DNA of 23,612 bases from a virus (lineage: Duplodnaviria > Heunggongvirae > Uroviricota > Caudoviricetes), in the IMG/VR virus record IMGVR_UViG_2648501338_000019, one strand, 5' to 3'. Below are positions 12,566 to 21,827 of the stretch, one piece after another. The position numbers and the translations under genes are program-made. Every line of letters begins with the position of its first letter. Within the stretch, counting starts at the first letter, position 1. The notes beneath the pieces were generated by a model that was given only the letters and a program-made list of their open reading frames with translations, was not told the DNA's origin and did no database searches.

Positions 12566-14572
12566 ATGCTTAAATTTCGCCGCGATCTTAACGGTTACGG
12601 TGGAGTTATTAACGAAGGGCAGAATGATCAATACGAATTTGAAATTGCTTTCTCCAGTGAACAGCCTTATCAGCGCCAATTCTGGGATGAGCAAAATCAA
12701 GAAATGGTGGTATTAGATGAAATTCTGGTACATACACCGGAAGCGGTTGATCTGTCTCGTCTGAATAATAACGCTCCGTTGCTGTTCAATCATAATTTCG
12801 ATAATCATATTGGTGTCGTTTGTAACGCTCGAATCGATGCGGATAACGTAGGTCGTGCTCTGGTTAAATTCTCTAAGCATGGCACTTTGGCTAATGATAT
12901 TCGTAATAAAGTCATTGAAGGTACGATGGAAAAAATTTCTGTCGGTTATGACATTAAAGAATATCACATCGACTACACCAAAGGACAATTGATTGTTACT
13001 AAATGGATTCCTCACGAGGTTTCATGGGTGTCTGTTCCCGCAGACGACACCGTGGGTCTGAATCGCTCTCTAAATACTATCACAGTTAATTTGGAGGCTA
13101 AACGCGATATGACTAAAGAACAAATCGAAGAAATCAAAGAAGAACAAGAACCCGCTCAGGTTGAAGAAACTCCGGTAGAAGAAAATAAAGAACCGGAAGT
13201 AGAAGAAACTCAAGAGCGCCAAGTTGAAGAGAATAAAGAAGATGAAAATCTCGAAGACGGAAAAGACGCTAAACATCCTGAAAGTGTTGATGATGATAGT
13301 TCAACTGTTCGGGAAACAGAAGAAGTAAAAGAAGAACGTGAAGCCGCTCCGGTTGAAGAAGAAAAAATCGAAGAAGTGGCTGAACGTTCCGAAGAAGACG
13401 AAGAAGAAATCCGAGCAATCGCTCGTGAGTTAAATATTAACGACGAAGAATTAGAACGCGCATTGGCAGTTAAAGATATGACGCCGGAAGCATTCCGCAC
13501 TAAGGCACTAAATAACATTACCAATGCTCAACGTAATAACGAACAAATTAATAAGGAACAAATCATGGAAAAAACTTTCGATCTTAATAACGTAATCCGC
13601 TCCCTGGTAGATGGCGACGTGCTCGGCGCTAACGAAGCTGAATATTCCGCTATGGCTGCTGGTGCTGCAATGCAGCGTGGTCGTGCTGCTCGCGGTGGCT
13701 CTGTATTCGTTCCGGCTGCTGCTCTGCGTGCTGCTTCCGAAGGTAACACCAAAGCTACTCTGACCGCTGTAACCGACGAAAAACTGCTGACCGAATCCTA
13801 TGTAGAAATGCTGCTTCCACAGTCTGTTCTGGGTCGTCTGGGTGTGACTGTTCTGTCTGGTCTGAATAGCCCGATTGCAGTACCAAAAATGACTGCTTCC
13901 AGCGTCGAAGCCTTTGGTTTTGTTGATGAAAATGGAAGTGCCCCCGAATCGAAGGCTAGCTTTGAAAACGTGAAAATGGCTCCGAAAACTTTTGCTGGTG
14001 GCAACCCGATCAGCCGTCAGTCTCTGAAAACTGTTCCGAATATTGCTACCCTGATCACTGATCACATTAACAAATCTGTTCGGATCAAACTGGAACAACT
14101 GATTCTGTCTGACAAAGACAACGAGCGCGGTCCGAAAGGTCTGGTTAAGCAACTGGTAGACGGTGGTCGCGTTACTAAGAAAGCCGCTTTTAGCTACAAA
14201 GACTTCCTGAAAGAAATTGCAGCACTGACCGACGCTGGCGTTCCGGCACAGTCCATCAAGTTTGCAATGAGCGGTGCAACTGCTGCTGAACTGGAATCTA
14301 CCCTGAAAGATAACGGCGTTTCCGGTTATATCATCGAAAACGGCAAACTGGCTGGTTACGATGTAGTTACTTCTGGCGTTATTCCGGCAGACCACATCGT
14401 TCTGGGTGACTTCTCCGGTATCATGATCGGTGAATGGGGTGGTCTGGAACTGGATATGGACGACACCACTTACCGCGCACAGTCTGCTATCGTTCCGCGT
14501 ATCTGGGTAGACCTGGACTTCACCGTAGTTCAGCCGGAAGCTCTGAAAGTTCTTCACATCTCCGCTGAATGA
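12566..14572 (+). CDS. prohead protease - acidic scaffold-like linker - HK97-fold major capsid protein fusion (668 aa); TGA stop
   Basis: N-terminal region resembles HK97-family prohead protease, the middle about 130 aa is E/K-rich (scaffold/delta-like), the C-terminal about 330 aa resembles HK97-type major capsid proteins; lies between portal and neck genes. Confidence 0.8.
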   Translation: MLKFRRDLNGYGGVINEGQNDQYEFEIAFSSEQPYQRQFWDEQNQEMVVLDEILVHTPEAVDLSRLNNNAPLLFNHNFDNHIGVVCNARIDADNVGRALVKFSKHGTLANDIRNKVIEGTMEKISVGYDIKEYHIDYTKGQLIVTKWIPHEVSWVSVPADDTVGLNRSLNTITVNLEAKRDMTKEQIEEIKEEQEPAQVEETPVEENKEPEVEETQERQVEENKEDENLEDGKDAKHPESVDDDSSTVRETEEVKEEREAAPVEEEKIEEVAERSEEDEEEIRAIARELNINDEELERALAVKDMTPEAFRTKALNNITNAQRNNEQINKEQIMEKTFDLNNVIRSLVDGDVLGANEAEYSAMAAGAAMQRGRAARGGSVFVPAAALRAASEGNTKATLTAVTDEKLLTESYVEMLLPQSVLGRLGVTVLSGLNSPIAVPKMTASSVEAFGFVDENGSAPESKASFENVKMAPKTFAGGNPISRQSLKTVPNIATLITDHINKSVRIKLEQLILSDKDNERGPKGLVKQLVDGGRVTKKAAFSYKDFLKEIAALTDAGVPAQSIKFAMSGATAAELESTLKDNGVSGYIIENGKLAGYDVVTSGVIPADHIVLGDFSGIMIGEWGGLELDMDDTTYRAQSAIVPRIWVDLDFTVVQPEALKVLHISAE

Positions 14573-14701
14573 ACTAACGTAGAACCATCTGAACCTTCCC
14601 CCGATTTGGGGGAAGAAAATCTGATTCCATCTCAGGAAGAAGAATCTCAGACGGTTACGGCGAAAGCCACAGTTAAAAAACAACGTAAAACTAAAGAATA
14701 A
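14573..14701 (+). CDS. in-frame 42-codon extension after the capsid gene TGA (TNVEPSEPSPDLGEENLIPSQEEESQTVTAKATVKKQRKTKE, then TAA TAA); candidate readthrough product
   Basis: Frame checked codon by codon; no start codon with an SD inside; homologous to the extension after the major tail gene. Confidence 0.4.
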   Translation, partial: TNVEPSEPSPDLGEENLIPSQEEESQTVTAKATVKKQRKTKE

Positions 14702-14706
14702 TAATT

Positions 14707-14734
14707 AGCCCTGCCTAACGGTGGGGCTTTTTTG
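14707..14734 (+). terminator. rho-independent terminator (AGCCCTGCC-TAAC-GGTGGGGCT + T6)
   Basis: 9-bp stem with two G-U pairs followed by TTTTTTG; near-identical copy after the major tail gene. Confidence 0.8.
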
Positions 14735-14763
14735 TATGTAAATACTCCATAAAGGGGGTAACT

Positions 14764-15054
14764 ATGTTCAAATTATCAGAATCACAATTAAATCGAATGT
14801 TTAAAAGTGCTCCTGTATTTTCGGTGGAAGGTGGTAAATCAATTCGTGCTTACCATGAAATTACTACTACCGACGAATCAGGTGTAATGACAGAAACCGA
14901 ATTTCTATTCTGTCGTGAGGGAGACTTAAAGCAAGGTGATATTGTCACAGTAGAAAACCAGCGTTTCAAAGTTCAATACGTTAAGCGCAATGGTGACAAT
15001 ACTTGTGATTGCTTTATCACTTTAGCAGGGGGTACACATGCTCGCTACCGTTAA
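14764..15054 (+). CDS. putative head-tail adaptor / head completion protein (96 aa)
   Basis: Size and position immediately after the capsid gene; conserved AAAGGGGGTAAC initiation motif. Confidence 0.45.
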   Translation: MFKLSESQLNRMFKSAPVFSVEGGKSIRAYHEITTTDESGVMTETEFLFCREGDLKQGDIVTVENQRFKVQYVKRNGDNTCDCFITLAGGTHARYR

Positions 15055-15469: not shown

Positions 15470-16303
15470 ATGAATATTACACAAGATAACTTAGATATTT
15501 TCACTGGATCACATGTTGAAGTGTCGATCTCTAACCAGATAGACAATCAGGTCGACTTTTTCGATCCTAGCTTTAGTTCTATGGAGAACATCGCAGCATT
15601 CCCTACGCTAACCGAATCCACAGAGATAGAAACTCTGGAAGAGTACGATCAGGACGCTACGGGGAAACTTGCTGGTTATCGTAGACTGGAACCGACAACA
15701 CTCACATTAAACCGTGTTCTTGACGATGAACATCAAGCAATGTTGATGAAAGCGGTAGAGGATAAAACACCTTTACGCTTCCGTATGTTCTATGTTGTGA
15801 ACTCTGGCTATAGTGCTGCTAACACAGGGTACTTTTGTATATTCGATGCTTACGTCACATCACATAAAACCCGTGGTAGTGATAACAAAGCTGTAACACT
15901 GGAATTTAAACTTGAACCAGATGGCGGGATTTTGGCAAGGGGTATTGCTACCGAAGGCCGGATCTTACGTCAGGGTGATTTTGGTTTGGGTGCTGGTGTA
16001 AATCCATTCACGGGTCCGATTGACAGCGAGGCATTAGCCGGAAACCGTTTCGTAACTTACAAGGGAACTGCTAGCGGTAATCCATATTCAACCGACACAG
16101 CATTAATTCACCTTCAAGCTAATGAGCATGGCGCATGGCAATTAACCTGTAATACTTCTGGCGCACCGCGTTTACGTGTCCGAAATATTCAGGAAAACGG
16201 TCGTTCTGAATGGATCAAGGTATATTCCACCAATGAGAAACCGACACCTAGCGAAATTGGCGCAGTGGCTAAGACTGACCGGATCGATTTCGGCGAATAC
16301 TAA
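15470..16303 (+). CDS. hypothetical structural protein (277 aa), candidate collar or fibre-anchoring protein; C-terminus shares the KPTPxE(I/L)G motif with the fibre
   Basis: Located between neck genes and the fibre gene; C-terminal NEKPTPSEIGAVAKTD parallels GDKPTPTELGVYSKAEVD and KKPTPEQLSQGEIA in the fibre. Confidence 0.5.
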   Translation: MNITQDNLDIFTGSHVEVSISNQIDNQVDFFDPSFSSMENIAAFPTLTESTEIETLEEYDQDATGKLAGYRRLEPTTLTLNRVLDDEHQAMLMKAVEDKTPLRFRMFYVVNSGYSAANTGYFCIFDAYVTSHKTRGSDNKAVTLEFKLEPDGGILARGIATEGRILRQGDFGLGAGVNPFTGPIDSEALAGNRFVTYKGTASGNPYSTDTALIHLQANEHGAWQLTCNTSGAPRLRVRNIQENGRSEWIKVYSTNEKPTPSEIGAVAKTDRIDFGEY

Positions 16304-16384: not shown

Positions 16385-19300
16385 ATGCAATCAATCCAAT
16401 TTAAACGCACACAGACGGCGGGTAAAAAACCAACGCCGGAACAATTATCACAGGGTGAAATCGCCTTACAGTTGGCGGATCATGTGATTTACACCAAAGA
16501 CAAAAATAATAACGTAGTCCAAATTAGTGTTTCTCCAGAAAAACACGCTGAACTGAATACGAAAGTAGACAATAACAAAACTAGCACTGACCGTGTTATT
16601 GCTTCCAACAAACAAGAAGCCGCTAATAATCTGGCTAGTGCTAAAGCTGAACTGAATCAGACTATCACTTCTACCCGTGATGCTCTCAATGCTTCAATCA
16701 CTGCTGGCGACACCGCAGCCAACAAACGAATTGATGCTTTGACTACCACAGTAGGTAACAATAAAACCGAAGCGGCTAACGCTCTGGCGGCTGCTAAGAC
16801 TGAACTGAATCAGACTATTACTTCAACCCGCGATACTATCAACGCAACAATTAACAAGAACAAGACAGATATTAATGCACGAGTTGATCAGACTAATACC
16901 AACGTTACTAACTTAACGAATACTGTCTCAGCAAATAAATCAGCCATAGAAACGACCGTAGCAAATAATAAACGCGATGCCGACACGAAGATCACCAATC
17001 TTACGGGGACAGTTAATAGCAACCATACAGCAATTAACAACAAGGTAGACCAGAATAAATCTTCTACTGATGCCGCAATTGCCGCAGCTAACCAGCGAAT
17101 TGATTCTATTGAAGGTAGTGCCGATGCTGCTTACATCAAGAAGAATACCAACACTTACCATCACGGCTATCTGTTAACCAAAACAGCTAACTATTTTGAT
17201 GATGCTGGTGCTCGTAACCTTGATTATTTTGGTGCATTCCGTCCAAACAATGCCGAAGGTTGGGGTAACTTAATCCTTAACATTCCTCATTCTGGCGGTA
17301 AAGCACACGGTCGCGGTTTTGAGTTCCACTATGGGTCTAGCTCATCTCAAGTTAAAACCTATGGCTTTGATAAAGATGGTAATAAGCGATTCAGCTACCG
17401 CATGTATCACGAAGGTGATAAGCCGACTCCGACTGAATTGGGTGTGTATAGTAAAGCCGAAGTTGATCAGATGTTCATCAAGAACGTTAGAATGACCGTT
17501 CCTTCTGGTGATGCTACTCGTGGATACTTCAAGATCGCAACCGCTACGATCCCACAGAATGGTCGAATGGTAATGCTTCGTATCTTCGGTGGTAATGGTT
17601 ATAACGTTAACTCTTATGATCAGGTTGACTTTGTAGAAATTGTCATCCGTTCCGGTAACAATAACCCGAAAGGCGTTAGTATTGCTGCTTATCGTCGAAA
17701 TGCTCTGAACGTTCATCAAGTATTTGCGGTTAATACTTCCGGTGATAACTACGATATCTACGTTAACTACGGTCGTTACACCGATAACGTTATTGTCGAA
17801 TACGGTAAAACTGATGGCGTTACTCTGACAGTACATGATGTTCCTGAATTAACTCTCGTTAAACCTTCTGTTGGTGTTACCGATGCTCGTGTTATTACGA
17901 TGTTCAACACCGAAAACAAAGCCGGAACGTTGATGTTTGATAATAACTCACAAGCAACCTATGATATTGTGAGCCTTAATAACGTACCAGACAACAATAA
18001 AAAATATATGCGTAAATTCCGCAGTCGTGCGGCGGAAACAATATGGCATGAAACTGTTCAAGGTGATGTGTATCGTTTGGCTACTGGTTCCACCGACCAA
18101 AAAGAAGTATTAAAAATTGTTGGTAGTGATGGTTTATTTGTCGATAGACTTCATCTGCAAGGCAATAACGCGATTCGTATGTGGCGTCCTACTGGTCGTA
18201 GTAACTATTTTGAATATATGGATCAGCGAGACGGGGCTAATAAACGTCAAGGCTGGTTTGGTTTTGGTTCTACAGATACTAACGATTTTCAATGGTATAG
18301 TGACGAAGGTAAAAACTTTGTTAAATTAGAAGCAAGTGGTCAAGTATCTTTAAGCACAGGTGCTACCAAAATTGTATACACCAATGGTCAATATGTAGCT
18401 GCTAACAGTGATGCATTCCGTATGATTTACGGTAACTATGGTGCATTCTGGCGTAATGATGGTCAAAACGTATATCTTCTGTCTACTGCCGAAAATGATA
18501 AATTTGGTGGTTGGAACGGCTATCGTCCATTCATTTACAATCTGGGTAGCGGTAATGTTACTTTGGGTGGTGATGGTAACGAAGGTGCATTAGTCTTAGA
18601 ACGTGCAAGTCGTGCTGCTCGTTTTGCTGGAAACACATACATTAAAGGCCAATATTTAACATTTGATGCTGGTGCTGGACAATCCCGCGACTATTTCCGT
18701 TTGAGTCATTGGGGCGATAGCAATAACGCTCGTGATAACGTTATACAGCTTGAAGATAGTAAAGGTGCTCACTTCACCACTGAACGTACTTTAGCAACTG
18801 GTGCGATTAAAACTAAATTCTTCGGTGATTTGGAATCTGCTGGTCTGATTCGCTGGGGTAAGGGTACAGCTACTTCTAGTTTCAATATTCGTGCATGGGG
18901 CGCTGATGCTCGTAAACAAGTATTTGAATGTGCTGATGAAAGCGGTTGGCATTGGTATACCCAACGTCCGGGCGGTCCGGGTACTACGGCAATTGAGTTT
19001 GCCATCAACGGTACTGTTAAGCCTCAAGCAATTCACACTGGCGGTAATATCACGCTTAACGGTGCTGATATTGAATTTAAGCGCACTGGTAATAAGCATT
19101 TGTGGTTTAGAGATCCGAATGGCTTAGAACTAGGTTTGATGTATTCCGATGATGCTGGTGTTATTCGCTTCCGTGGTCAGAAACAAGCCCAGACGTGGAA
19201 ACTTGCGGATAAGATGATCCAGTTGGAATCTGGTACTGTAACCGGTGGCGGTAATGGCCTGATTCGTGGTGAAGTTGCTGGCGGTAGTTGGGCTAGCTGG

Positions 19301-19885
19301 CGTGACCGTGCTGCTGGTCTTATGGTTGGGTGTCCTCAATCCACCAACTCGGCACATAACGTATGGAAAGCGACGCATTGGGGTAAATATCACATTGCAG
19401 CAATGGGTGTGCACGTTCCTGACGGTACTATCGGTAACGCTCTTGTTCGTCTCCATGTTCATGATACTAACTTTGACTTTAACGCTGCTGGTGACTTTAC
19501 CGCAGGTCGTAACGGTTCGTTTAACGATGTTTACATTCGCTCTGACTCCCGTTTGAAGATTAACAAGGAAGAATTACAGGACGGCGCATTAGAGAAAGTA
19601 AACTCACTGAAAGTCTACACCTACGATAAAGTTAAATCTCTTAAAGACCGTAGTGTGATTAAACGCGAAGTAGGTATTATTGCTCAGGATCTGGAAGAAG
19701 TATTGCCGGAAGCAGTAGGTATTCAATCCACCGAAGATCCAGAAAATCCAGAAGCAATCAAGACTATTTCTAACTCTGCTGTCAATGCTTTAATCATCAA
19801 AGCTATGCAGGAAATGGACGCCAAATATAAAGCCCAGATCGAAGCATTACAGAAAGAAATTGCCGAACTGAAAGCAACTAAATAA
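16385..19885 (+). CDS. long fibre protein (1166 aa) with a tandemly duplicated N-terminal rod segment and a C-terminal intramolecular chaperone (peptidase S74-like) domain
   Basis: C-terminus RSDSRLKINKEEL...VYTYDKVK...GIIAQDLEEVLPEAV matches the autoproteolytic chaperone domain of phage fibres and tailspikes; N/T/S-rich beta-type sequence in the middle. Confidence 0.85.
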   Translation: MQSIQFKRTQTAGKKPTPEQLSQGEIALQLADHVIYTKDKNNNVVQISVSPEKHAELNTKVDNNKTSTDRVIASNKQEAANNLASAKAELNQTITSTRDALNASITAGDTAANKRIDALTTTVGNNKTEAANALAAAKTELNQTITSTRDTINATINKNKTDINARVDQTNTNVTNLTNTVSANKSAIETTVANNKRDADTKITNLTGTVNSNHTAINNKVDQNKSSTDAAIAAANQRIDSIEGSADAAYIKKNTNTYHHGYLLTKTANYFDDAGARNLDYFGAFRPNNAEGWGNLILNIPHSGGKAHGRGFEFHYGSSSSQVKTYGFDKDGNKRFSYRMYHEGDKPTPTELGVYSKAEVDQMFIKNVRMTVPSGDATRGYFKIATATIPQNGRMVMLRIFGGNGYNVNSYDQVDFVEIVIRSGNNNPKGVSIAAYRRNALNVHQVFAVNTSGDNYDIYVNYGRYTDNVIVEYGKTDGVTLTVHDVPELTLVKPSVGVTDARVITMFNTENKAGTLMFDNNSQATYDIVSLNNVPDNNKKYMRKFRSRAAETIWHETVQGDVYRLATGSTDQKEVLKIVGSDGLFVDRLHLQGNNAIRMWRPTGRSNYFEYMDQRDGANKRQGWFGFGSTDTNDFQWYSDEGKNFVKLEASGQVSLSTGATKIVYTNGQYVAANSDAFRMIYGNYGAFWRNDGQNVYLLSTAENDKFGGWNGYRPFIYNLGSGNVTLGGDGNEGALVLERASRAARFAGNTYIKGQYLTFDAGAGQSRDYFRLSHWGDSNNARDNVIQLEDSKGAHFTTERTLATGAIKTKFFGDLESAGLIRWGKGTATSSFNIRAWGADARKQVFECADESGWHWYTQRPGGPGTTAIEFAINGTVKPQAIHTGGNITLNGADIEFKRTGNKHLWFRDPNGLELGLMYSDDAGVIRFRGQKQAQTWKLADKMIQLESGTVTGGGNGLIRGEVAGGSWASWRDRAAGLMVGCPQSTNSAHNVWKATHWGKYHIAAMGVHVPDGTIGNALVRLHVHDTNFDFNAAGDFTAGRNGSFNDVYIRSDSRLKINKEELQDGALEKVNSLKVYTYDKVKSLKDRSVIKREVGIIAQDLEEVLPEAVGIQSTEDPENPEAIKTISNSAVNALIIKAMQEMDAKYKAQIEALQKEIAELKATK

Positions 19886-19941: not shown

Positions 19942-20415
19942 ATGTCTCAGCAATTCAAAGATATTTTTACTGGTGGTCTGGTAAGTCTGTTCTATCACGC
20001 GGACACCACTAATACCGCTCTCGACCACGAAAGCTACGAAGAAATTAAAGAGTGTGCTGGTTTTCCTGAAACTGGTATCGAGCGCGGTACTGTAGAAGTT
20101 AAATCCTTCTCTTCTCAGTATAACCGTAAACTGGTAGGGAAGCTGAACGTTCCTGATCTGACTCTGACCGTTAACTACATCCCAGGCGATGCGGTACATG
20201 AAAAACTGATCAAAGCTGCCGAAGACGGTACTCGTATTCAGATTAAAGTAGAATATTACGTTGACGCAGCAAAACAGACTGGTATTCGCACCGCTTTCAA
20301 CGGCTTCATTTCTAAAGTTGCTATGAACGGTGGCGATGAAGAAGTTGTAACCAAAGAGTTTACCTTCGCGGTGGATGGTGCTCCGCTGAAACAGCAAATC
20401 TTCACTGCCGGATGA
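19942..20415 (+). CDS. major tail (tube) protein (157 aa); TGA stop
   Basis: Size, composition and position immediately upstream of the chaperone and tape-measure genes; conserved TTAAGGGGTAAT initiation motif. Confidence 0.7.
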   Translation: MSQQFKDIFTGGLVSLFYHADTTNTALDHESYEEIKECAGFPETGIERGTVEVKSFSSQYNRKLVGKLNVPDLTLTVNYIPGDAVHEKLIKAAEDGTRIQIKVEYYVDAAKQTGIRTAFNGFISKVAMNGGDEEVVTKEFTFAVDGAPLKQQIFTAG

Positions 20416-20535
20416 ACTAACGAAGAACTTCCCGAACCGGAACCACAGCCGGAACATGAAGCGGTGGTGATTCCAGAAGTAGAAGAAGTTACGGCGAAAG
20501 CCACAGCTAAACGAAGCCGCAAGGCTAAAGATTAA
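20416..20535 (+). CDS. in-frame 39-codon extension after the major tail gene TGA (TNEELPEPEPQPEHEAVVIPEVEEVTAKATAKRSRKAKD, then TAA); candidate readthrough product
   Basis: Frame checked codon by codon; shares the opening TGA ACT AAC G and the closing VTAKAT-x-K...RK-x-K motif with the capsid extension. Confidence 0.4.
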   Translation, partial: TNEELPEPEPQPEHEAVVIPEVEEVTAKATAKRSRKAKD

Positions 20536-20540
20536 TTATA

Positions 20541-20570
20541 AGCCCTGCCTTAATGGTGGGGCTTTTTTAT
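20541..20570 (+). terminator. rho-independent terminator (AGCCCTGCC-TTAAT-GGTGGGGCT + T6), homolog of the one at 14707
   Basis: Same stem sequence as the capsid terminator; loop differs by one inserted base. Confidence 0.8.
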
Positions 20571-20583
20571 TGGAGTAATCAAA

Positions 20584-21090
20584 ATGGCGAATGTCGTTAA
20601 TAAGCCTGGCTGGGTCGGGTCATCTGCTGTTTCTGTAACTGGTCAACGATGGATGAGCGCAGCAATGAACGCATTAAAGGTTAGTCGCCCAGCTAACATG
20701 AGTGCGATGTGTGGTCGTGGTATGGATACGGTTGTAGCTACTGCTGCGTGGTCTACTTCATTGGGTAATAACTGGGGTGTAACTGCTTCAAACTATCCAG
20801 TAACTGACATGCGCGGTAAAGGATCTATGGAGAACCCCGAAAACGTGGGCGTAGGGCGTCTGATTGGCGTTATCGTTGGTCAATTCAATGGCGGTACTCC
20901 TACTATGGCTGTATATCTCCAGAACGGTAGAGCGGGGAATATAACCGTTAATTTGGGTGGTGCTGCTGTCACTGTTCCTTATAACAGTATGCAAAGCGGT
21001 TTTCATTACTATTGGTTAAGCAATCCTCCGGCTGCTTTACTCAATAACATTAAGAAGACTGGCACTAAGCAGACTTTGAAAATCTCTTAA
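20584..21090 (+). CDS. hypothetical protein (168 aa), G/S/T/N-rich beta-type; likely minor structural protein or moron between the tail tube and chaperone genes
   Basis: ORF with SD GGAG; no family recognised. Confidence 0.45.
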   Translation: MANVVNKPGWVGSSAVSVTGQRWMSAAMNALKVSRPANMSAMCGRGMDTVVATAAWSTSLGNNWGVTASNYPVTDMRGKGSMENPENVGVGRLIGVIVGQFNGGTPTMAVYLQNGRAGNITVNLGGAAVTVPYNSMQSGFHYYWLSNPPAALLNNIKKTGTKQTLKIS

Positions 21091-21135: not shown

Positions 21136-21444
21136 ATGAATCTGAATGAAATGCTGAAAGCTCTTTCTCCGAAACGTGAATCTTTAACCCTCGGAGGATT
21201 TACGTTCTATGCTCGCCCTATGTCGGTACAAGAATTTAATGAACATGTTTTCAATACTGATAAAAAAGACCGTGATGAACGCTCTATTCTTCGTTGTATT
21301 GAAGATGAAGACGGTAAGCCAGTATTTGAATCTATTGAACAAGTTAAGGCATTGTATACTAGCGTCCGCAGCGAATTAATCGGCTTAGTTGCTCAAGCAT
21401 CATTGATGAAAGATGCGGCGGTAATTGAAAACGAGGTAAAGTAA
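21136..21444 (+). CDS. tail assembly chaperone (lambda gpG-like position)
   Basis: 102-aa ORF directly upstream of the tape measure gene, with an overlapping ORF in the -1 frame, which is the canonical G/GT arrangement. Confidence 0.6.
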   Translation: MNLNEMLKALSPKRESLTLGGFTFYARPMSVQEFNEHVFNTDKKDRDERSILRCIEDEDGKPVFESIEQVKALYTSVRSELIGLVAQASLMKDAAVIENEVK

Positions 21445-21452
21445 ACCCGCTC

Positions 21453-21827
21453 TTGAATTTTTATTTTCGGCAAATGATGCGTCGGGGCTTGAGTAAAGAT
21501 GAGATGGATAATATGCCAATTACGCTATTTTGGGCGTTGCATATATTCGATACATATCTTGAACCACAAAGCCCCCTGTTTCAAGATGCGCGACATGCAC
21601 AGTCGATGTATTACATGCACGTTACATCTCCTAACATGACTCGTGAATGGTTGAATAAAATCAATGTTAACCAATTCCGAATGATTAAGGACGACAAGCA
21701 ATTTAAAACGCAAGAAGAAATAAAAGAAATTGCTCGTAAGAAAGAGGAAGAACGTAACGCTGCTTTGGTTGATAGTTTTTTCGACGCTTCATTATTACAA
21801 AAGCTCAAGAGCGGACAATTGGGGTAA
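21453..21827 (+). CDS. T-like ORF in the -1 frame relative to the chaperone gene; probably expressed only as a G-T fusion via programmed -1 frameshift
   Basis: The -1 frame opens at 21429, 16 nt before the G stop; the track's start at 21453 is a TTG with no SD; ends 3 nt before the tape measure ATG. Confidence 0.5.
   Translation: MNFYFRQMMRRGLSKDEMDNMPITLFWALHIFDTYLEPQSPLFQDARHAQSMYYMHVTSPNMTREWLNKINVNQFRMIKDDKQFKTQEEIKEIARKKEEERNAALVDSFFDASLLQKLKSGQLG

Follow-up and report, generated by a model that had tools for sequence, protein, structure and literature searches.

The 23,612-nucleotide (nt) stretch of DNA considered here (IMG/VR record IMGVR_UViG_2648501338_000019; hereafter the window) is a portion of an Escherichia coli prophage in which the major capsid gene ends in TGA and is followed, in the same reading frame, by 42 further codons and a tandem stop. 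A second unit of the same design stands behind the gene for the tail tube protein. Comparison of related prophage sequences makes it probable, in our judgement, that the two units are copies of a portable module maintained by selection for UGA readthrough on the two most abundant virion proteins, which would provide each virion with a few extended capsid and tube subunits. This reading is favoured because the TGA, the frame and the closing double stop are conserved, because no start codon is conserved within the extensions and no relative or database protein carries a sense-codon fusion, and because the charge pattern of the encoded peptide is retained. A leaky TGA producing a minor extended capsid protein had been put forward in a preliminary description made from this sequence alone, and every comparative test that could be run favours it.

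The prophage is present in 54 of 5426 complete E. coli genomes (~1%), and database relatives of its capsid protein come from E. coli, Shigella and Escherichia albertii. E. coli UTAK-14 (NZ_CP168998) matches positions 14420-14765, including the capsid extension, without a difference, and the tube module described below recurs unchanged in strains 14EC029 and PSJ-22. Its late region carries lambda-type large terminase and portal genes, together with a fused protease-capsid open reading frame (ORF) at 12566-14572. The features of the capsid module are as follows.

12566-14569, plus strand: major capsid gene, 668 amino acids (aa), comprising a prohead protease, an acidic scaffold-like linker and an HK97-fold capsid domain in one ORF (Pfam, PHROG and PDB homology).
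14570-14572, plus strand: candidate leaky stop TGA of the capsid gene, found in 36/36 capsid loci, with the next bases always A[C/A]T.
14573-14698, plus strand: in-frame 42-codon extension TNVEPSEPSPDLGEENLIPSQEEESQTVTAKATVKKQRKTKE, with an acidic proline-rich linker, VTAKAT and the basic tail KKQRKTKE (open frame 0).
14583-14656, plus strand: predicted extended stem-loop with its base 10 nt after the UGA and an apical 8-base-pair (bp) hairpin at 14595-14615 (folding and sequence variation).
14659-14668, plus strand: mini hairpin GGC-GAAA-GCC within a 19-nt core shared by both modules (tube copy at 20493-20502; sequence variation).
14699-14704, plus strand: tandem stop TAA TAA closing the capsid extension (TAATAA in 34/36 loci, TGATAA in 2/36).
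14708-14733, plus strand: intrinsic terminator GCCCTGCC-taac-GGTGGGGC-TTTTTT, with its stem at 14708-14727 and T-run at 14728-14733 (sequence and folding).

The two parts of the capsid ORF match the Pfam families Peptidase_S78 (PF04586, residues 40-162) and Phage_capsid (PF05065, residues 410-664), and the protein matches PHROG 617, major head protein (E=2e-94). It is also a sequence homolog of the capsid protein of roseophage R4C (8GTA_A, E=5e-28), the solved capsid of which has T=7 symmetry (PMC10276861). The arrangement reported in the preliminary description, namely the TGA at 14570-14572, the 42 in-frame codons, the TAA TAA and the terminator, was confirmed in the sequence, as was the 8-bp hairpin (CTTCCCCC/GGGGGAAG, 14595-14615), which lies 22 nt past the capsid stop. 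The observation that the other genes of the window mostly end in TAA was likewise borne out (TAA 22, TGA 4 and TAG 1 among 27 plausible window genes). This tabulation of stop codons also revealed a second TGA-plus-extension module, on the tail tube gene, which the first reading of the sequence had missed. Its features are listed below.

19942-20412, plus strand: gene of the tail tube (major tail) protein (157 aa), which corresponds to the tube-forming domain of lambda gpV (PHROG 158, Pfam and AlphaFold).
20413-20415, plus strand: second candidate leaky TGA, in the context TGA ACT AAC (TGA then ACT in 27/27 tube loci).
20416-20532, plus strand: in-frame 39-codon tube extension TNEELPEPEPQPEHEAVVIPEVEEVTAKATAKRSRKAKD, homologous to the capsid extension (sequence).
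20533-20541, plus strand: closing stops TAA TTA TAA, with one TTA codon between (TAATTATAA or TAATTTTAA in 27/27 loci).
20540-20568, plus strand: intrinsic terminator of the tube module, near-identical to that of the capsid module (sequence).

The tube protein matches PHROG 158, major tail protein, with E=3e-21, and Pfam Phage_TTP_11 with E=2e-6 (28.3 bits against a cutoff of 28.4). The top Foldseek matches of its AlphaFold model are lambda gpV structures (7T2E and 8K36; probability 1.00, template modelling score on the target 0.6), and in the model the extension is disordered, with a predicted local distance difference test value <50 and no secondary structure. The two modules share several features at the DNA level. 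For example, the junction reads TGA ACT AAC GAA in the tube gene and TGA ACT AAC GTA in the capsid gene, an exact 19-nt core (GTTACGGCGAAAGCCACAG) is common to both (14654-14672 and 20488-20506), and the first stop closing each extension is 6 nt from the terminator stem. A second tube-like gene is also present in the window, encoding a 277-aa protein at 15470-16303, upstream of the tail fiber gene; its residues 1-154 match PHROG 158 (E=1e-8).

Related loci were drawn from three sources: 31 IMG/VR loci with 86-100% capsid protein identity, five loci out of the 54 matching complete E. coli genomes, and extra loci recovered by searching for the conserved core motif. The usable set consists of 36 capsid and 27 tube loci (63 in total), with 37 unique extensions, 20 of them from the capsid gene. 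In all 63 loci (36 capsid, 27 tube) the stop is TGA followed by A[C/A]T, despite variation in the flanking codons; the codon before the TGA is GAA, GAG or GAC in the capsid gene and GGA, GGT, GCT or TCT in the tube gene. The invariance of the TGA favours the earlier impression that its choice on the capsid gene is deliberate. The length of the capsid extension differs between loci (27, 28, 33, 42, 43, 44 or 45 codons) with the same closing double stop, and the tube extension has 36, 39 or 41 codons, always in frame. Frame 0 is free of stops in 37 of 37 unique extensions, and frames +1 and +2 are each closed in all 37.

The lengths of insertions and deletions (indels) point in the same direction. 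Within the extensions of both genes, 9 of 9 indel events are multiples of three (48, 27, 15, 6 or 3 nt, those of the capsid extension being 48, 27 and 3 nt and those of the tube extension 6 and 15 nt), in contrast to 0 of 6 in the adjoining terminator and spacer, where every event is 1-2 nt long (Fisher p=2e-4). The capsid terminator is kept in relatives, with indels of 1-2 nt in its loop, and gaps of this size are confined to the terminator loop and the spacer to the next gene. Frame-breaking indels in relatives, which the preliminary description had named as evidence that would speak against readthrough, were thus not found in the extensions. Furthermore, 4.4% of possible substitutions would create a stop, and over ~98 substitution events the probability of seeing no stop is 0.012. 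A 42-codon open frame could by itself be due to chance. The comparative pattern, judged from these sequences, is not, given TGA in 63 of 63 loci, a single open frame in 37 unique extensions and indels only in multiples of three.

The module also appears to be portable. Three E. coli prophages encode capsid proteins only ~38% identical to that of the window and with a different C-terminus (...TVVQKKVD or ...TVVQKKGE), yet the same extension follows in frame behind TGA-A. At locus L066 the tube extension precedes a different terminator, which indicates that extension and terminator are separable. One prophage with a capsid module identical to that of the window has a tube ortholog (60% identical) in which TAA comes directly before the terminator, without an extension, and distant capsid genes (metagenomic sequences with ~40% identity, Atlantibacter and Yersinia) likewise have TAA or TAATAA as their stop, with a terminator next and no extension. 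A genome scan for a wider reach returned only three distant capsids (Atlantibacter and Yersinia), with the extension in none. No third carrier gene emerged from a scan of IMG/VR with a 16-nt core motif: apart from chance matches, every hit lay behind one of two capsid types or behind the tube gene.

A sister capsid lineage (~39-43% identity to the capsid of the window) ends in TAA and is represented by L001 (7756-7881, Escherichia phage DCP80), L071 (1700-1787) and L072, the latter two being E. coli prophages. Between the stop and the terminator these sequences contain a hairpin and, in the -1 frame, a short lysine-rich ORF (...AAPVKKSKSASG, ...SPAKVKKPRALKVK); a lysine codon in an A-run (GAA AAG, GTA AAA ACG) is found just upstream of the stop. 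With few sequences at hand, this ORF might be a frameshift-accessed counterpart of the basic tail or might be due to chance.

At the peptide level, the extension sequence evolves fast, and what is retained is chiefly its charge. In all variant classes a Pro/Glu-rich linker with a net charge of -3 to -9 is followed by V-T-A-K-A-T, and the C-terminal 14 residues have a charge of +5 or +6 in every one of the ten classes, so that the acidic, proline-containing linker and basic tail described earlier for the capsid extension prove to be a conserved architecture. The tails are spelled by distinct nucleotide sequences (KKQRKTKE, KKERKTKAK, KKVGRPPKAK, KRGRKPKE, KRSRKAKD and KRGRKAKN), and GRPP is retained through synonymous changes (GGA/GGT, CGT/CGC and CCA/CCG). 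An AT-hook-like GRP core occurs in the KKVGRPPKAK and KKAGRPPKAK variants; the tails of the window itself, KKQRKTKE and KRSRKAKD, are without GRP. The synonymous share of changes is 31% in the capsid extension and 36% in the tube extension, or 33% combined against an expected 24% (combined p=0.03). Codon-level conservation had been suggested as a check on readthrough, and the check did return a synonymous excess; the excess is weak, unconvincing alone and is not relied upon here.

Similar tails exist as ordinary parts of proteins in other genera. In a syntenic Edwardsiella tarda prophage (L139, 6001-6528) the tube protein has 175 aa and ends in a fused tail (...PDAPLATYHMNVIPEAVAAKEK), its gene being uninterrupted by a stop; the tail, 20 aa long (...NVIPEAVAAKEK), aligns with the E. 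coli tube extension. The tube orthologs of Salmonella and Providencia have short fused tails ending in ...[S/A/G]RK. The fused basic tails of the Edwardsiella and Salmonella orthologs, both alignable with the extension, indicate that a basic C-terminal tail is a real protein elsewhere in the family.

The weak constraint on amino acids would also fit a need for an open frame only, as might be expected if the peptide were a by-product and the ribosome itself had the effect. A readthrough ribosome positioned at the TAATAA would cover the 5' arm of the terminator and could either suppress termination or shield the 3' end of the mRNA, and the rate of readthrough would then set the share of downstream transcription. 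Consistent with such a mechanism, the first stop is exactly 6 nt before the stem in both modules, compared to ~9-27 nt between stop and stem in relatives without the extension, and the module sits behind two genes whose products are required in much larger amounts than those of the genes downstream. However, this explanation gives no account of an acidic linker and a +5/+6 tail that are kept in ten variant classes despite nucleotide differences, or of tube orthologs with fused basic tails, and a weaker terminator would be a simpler route to the same effect. In addition, no antiterminator pairing that could form as an alternative to the terminator was identified, and at locus L031 an extra TAA puts the first stop 9 nt from the stem. 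Taken as the whole function of the module, regulation of the terminator by ribosomes therefore seems unlikely to us.

The RNA downstream of the stop codons is predicted to be strongly structured. With the terminator excluded, the capsid extension folds with a minimum free energy of -38.1 kcal/mol (z=-5.2), and the corresponding z scores are -5.3 for the short capsid variant and -2.3 to -3.4 for the tube variants; 66 control coding windows from the same phage have a mean z of -0.14 (standard deviation 1.1), two of them falling below -3. The base of the structure lies 10 nt after the UGA in four of five variant classes (long capsid, short capsid and two tube classes). Across the 14 unique variants of the long capsid class, 5 of 54 paired sites are variable versus 19 of 42 unpaired sites (p=9e-5). 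Variants L013 and L026 do not retain the outer stem of the long structure. The 27- and 28-codon capsid variants and the tube gene lack the 8-bp hairpin and have other stems at the same position. The preliminary description had proposed this hairpin as a stimulator of readthrough; it is the tip of a larger, stable structure beginning 10 nt after the UGA and is not universal across variants. Given its absence from the 27/28-codon capsid variants and from the tube gene, it is better seen as a plausible tuner of readthrough than as a proven stimulator.

Sequence changes in the shared core bear on RNA pairing as well. In relatives, the mini hairpin occurs with a compensatory change (GGA-GAAA-TCC in L040 and L067) and with a wobble pair (GGT-GAAA-GCC in L022 and L043), and the variants are found in capsid and tube contexts. 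This suggests selection at the RNA level on top of coding. Two further observations concern local structure. The stretch encoding KKVGRPP (L008, L015, L022 and others) contains a 5-bp hairpin, GGTGG-n5-CCACC, for which L015 and L022 have GGCGG-n5-CCGCC, a Val-to-Ala change and a synonymous Pro change keeping the pairing. Within the capsid gene, one control window just past the acidic linker (13316-13441) has z=-4.3.

These structural features would be expected if the region were an untranslated structured 3' element, such as an mRNA stabiliser or a small RNA derived from the 3' untranslated region, that spread by recombination behind highly expressed genes, its open frame being a coincidence of shared ancestry. 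The significantly stable fold, the avoidance of paired bases by variation in the long capsid class, the compensatory change in the mini hairpin and the covariation of the GGYGG/CCRCC stem all agree with such an element, as do the weak synonymous excess and the lack of any annotation in the extension region by the NCBI Prokaryotic Genome Annotation Pipeline. An untranslated element nevertheless provides no reason for 9/9 versus 0/6 indels in multiples of three, for exactly one stop-free frame in 37 unique sequences, for TGA-A in 63 of 63 loci or for an in-frame join to an unrelated capsid. It also corresponds to no known RNA family: an Rfam scan with permissive thresholds (E up to 10) that included the selenocysteine insertion sequence (SECIS) families gave no match, a Phe_leader hit falling far below threshold (20 vs 55 bits). 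We consider it improbable that the module is only an RNA element.

Translation of the extension as a separate small gene, from an internal non-ATG start (TTG 14606, or a GTG in the tube module), is very improbable. The preliminary description stated that the capsid extension has no internal start codon with a Shine-Dalgarno sequence. It was right that there is no Shine-Dalgarno sequence, and no start is conserved, but an in-frame TTG does exist at 14606-14608, within the hairpin loop, and one public gene call (P0082, 33 aa) begins at the equivalent of TTG 14606. This codon becomes TCG in one long variant and is represented in the short variants by a leucine codon or its replacement (TTG, TTA, CTG or TCG), and at the corresponding place in the tube module there is no start codon. 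Moreover, the preservation of frame and the in-frame indels continue as far as the TGA, in sequence 5' of every candidate start.

Among 5.8 billion database proteins, no fusion of the extension through a sense codon was found, nor does any relative have a sense codon at the junction. The extension occurs among these proteins only twice, as P0082 and as P0083 (L138, ENA contig k141_243218), a 198-aa tube protein with W at the junction where the DNA has TGA. P0083 was rejected as a true fusion, the gene caller having evidently applied a code in which TGA is Trp, presumably because the extension scores as coding. Other candidate routes and genes were also rejected. Access by frameshifting is excluded by the position of the extension in frame 0 and the closure of the other frames in all variants. 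A genome-wide reassignment of TGA is contradicted by the fact that only two genes have TGA with an in-frame extension, by the lack of a tRNA gene in the window and by the host being E. coli. With respect to suppressor tRNAs, there is no tRNA gene in the window and none annotated in a related complete prophage. Finally, an antisense ORF (13508-14683, minus strand, 391 aa) overlaps the capsid gene in its 3' portion as well as most of the extension, and might have accounted for the preserved frame; stops break it in many relatives, and it is thus a by-product of capsid codon bias, and its counterpart over the tube module is likewise interrupted by stops in many relatives.

The fused tails of the Edwardsiella and Salmonella tube orthologs, together with the weak amino-acid constraint, could also be taken to mean that the TGA arose rather recently, by a nonsense mutation truncating a once-fused tail and leaving a decaying extension. 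We find this hardly tenable: the same TGA-A stands on two genes and on two capsid lineages that are 38% identical, no relative has a sense codon there, and none of the stops or frameshifts expected of decay is present in the 63 loci. SelB requires a specific loop and bulge, and insertion of selenocysteine, for which a UGA with a hairpin within ~10-25 nt superficially resembles E. coli fdhF, can practically be dismissed, as the permissive Rfam scan found no SECIS family and the hairpin differs wholly between variant classes (loops GAUUU, GAAA or none).

Several points weigh against selected readthrough and should be kept in mind. Purifying selection on amino acids is weak, with neither gene significant alone, and the variants are closely related and mosaic, so that truly independent events are modest in number. 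Variation-based support for the stem-loop is significant in the long capsid class only, the other classes being too invariant, and a real constraint at the RNA level could explain part of the nucleotide conservation without translation. Release factor 2 (RF2) is more active in natural E. coli isolates than in K-12, and basal readthrough in such isolates may for this reason be below 1%. In addition, there is no near DNA match to a cultured phage among 50,697 phage records, and hence no cultured carrier of the module; the closest protein match is Escherichia phage DCP80, with 43% identity.

The architecture of the two modules and its evolutionary conservation are read directly from the DNA; from them we infer translation, the inserted amino acid, the efficiency of readthrough, the external position of the tail and its adhesive or assembly role, as follows. 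Most ribosomes would stop at the UGA at 14570 (capsid) or 20413 (tube) and release proteins of the usual length. A minority of ribosomes, probably amounting to one to a few percent, would decode the UGA by means of a near-cognate tRNA (Trp-tRNA, competing with RF2, is the likeliest) and would continue for 42 (capsid) or 39 (tube) codons to the tandem stop before the terminator. The weak UGA-A context is one likely signal, and the stem-loop 10 nt downstream probably sets the level. The products would be minor subunits carrying a disordered, acidic, proline-rich linker and a Lys/Arg-rich tail, which in some variants has an AT-hook-like GRP. Readthrough of UGA by Trp-tRNA against RF2 is ~2-4% in E. 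coli (PMC10570021). At 2-4%, and with T=7 taken from homology to R4C, approximately 8-17 of 415 capsid subunits and a handful of subunits per tail would be extended.

The peptide would be displayed on the virion exterior, where it might provide weak electrostatic adhesion or an assembly contact, this being the least certain step. HK97-fold capsid proteins (T7 10B, P22) present their C-termini on the outer surface. More tentatively, the segment bounded by the TGA and the double stop may represent a portable recoding cassette that recombination could graft in frame onto any abundant virion protein, leading a few subunits to show a flexible acidic arm with a basic, AT-hook-like tip; the readthrough ribosomes, which would halt 6 nt ahead of the terminator, might in addition adjust downstream transcription. 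We put this broader proposal forward as a possibility that at present falls short of being likely.

The proposed system has parallels in several known cases of recoding. As in the E. coli phage Qbeta, the gene for the coat protein ends in UGA; in Qbeta, readthrough at a frequency of ~1/15 inserts Trp and yields the minor extended subunit A1, which is built into the virion (PMC8067240). The A1 extension includes a proline-rich stretch that has been described as a polyproline type II helix (PMC8067240), and the linker here is proline-rich as well. Qbeta differs in being a small single-stranded RNA phage whose T=3 coat has an unrelated fold and whose extension is folded and ~195 aa long, whereas the present modules belong to a tailed double-stranded DNA (dsDNA) prophage with an HK97-fold capsid, have extensions of 27-45 aa that are predicted to be disordered, and include a second copy on the tube gene. 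The stop context in Qbeta is also UGA-A.

Extension of both capsid and tail proteins is known from Listeria phages PSA, A118 and A500, in which frameshifting gives short major and long minor forms of the capsid (Cps) and major tail (Tsh) proteins (PMC5009743), similar to what is proposed here. Likewise, recoding at the 3' end of the capsid gene produces a minor C-terminally extended form in T7 and T3 (10A/10B). In these phages the mechanism is a +1 or -1 frameshift at slippery sites, and several add an immunoglobulin-like domain; the extension considered here continues the reading frame past a UGA, needs no slippery site and would be a short, disordered and charged peptide.

In alphaviruses, furoviruses and tobraviruses, stem-loops 7-9 nt past a leaky stop stimulate readthrough, and the combination of UGA, a short spacer (10 nt here) and a stem-loop spanning ~75-140 nt is comparable (PMC3159437). 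These viruses use eukaryotic ribosomes and the stimulation is proven (3- to 14-fold), whereas the element described here is putative and its structure varies by class. Lambda gpV offers a structural parallel in the form of a C-terminal appendage after the tube-forming domain, with the difference that its domain is fused, folded and present on every subunit, in contrast to an unstructured peptide that would be on few. The domain that follows the tube domain of gpV is immunoglobulin-like. Appendages of this kind lie on the exterior of the tail and are believed to mediate weak adhesion to surfaces.

A T4-like long tail fiber (16385-19885), with a Gp34 trimerisation domain and an S74 chaperone domain, is encoded upstream of the tail tube gene. 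On its other side, ahead of the tail assembly chaperone gene, is a gene for a Gp38-like adhesin (20584-21090); tail fiber and adhesin content varies among related prophages. Two small adjoining ORFs lie 3' of the tube gene (21136-21827), the first of which matches the tail assembly chaperone family. They occupy the expected place of the conserved siphophage G/GT -1 frameshift.

Recoding at the ends of structural genes of tailed phages is so far known as frameshifting only (T7 and the Listeria phages), and stop-codon readthrough in phages has been described solely for the small RNA phage Qbeta and relatives of it; a full-text literature search, largely without subscription journals, found no case of stop-codon readthrough in a tailed phage. 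If the present interpretation is correct, the two modules would provide the first example of programmed stop-codon readthrough from a tailed dsDNA phage; the example would moreover be modular, with one type of module serving both capsid and tail tube. It would extend programmed readthrough to the dsDNA phages of E. coli, the most tractable host, and would represent a natural case of sub-stoichiometric peptide display on a virion. Annotation pipelines miss or mis-call the extension, one public call having given Trp for TGA, and the signature of conserved TGA-A, an in-frame open extension, indels only in multiples of three and a tandem stop abutting a terminator can be scanned for across prophage collections.

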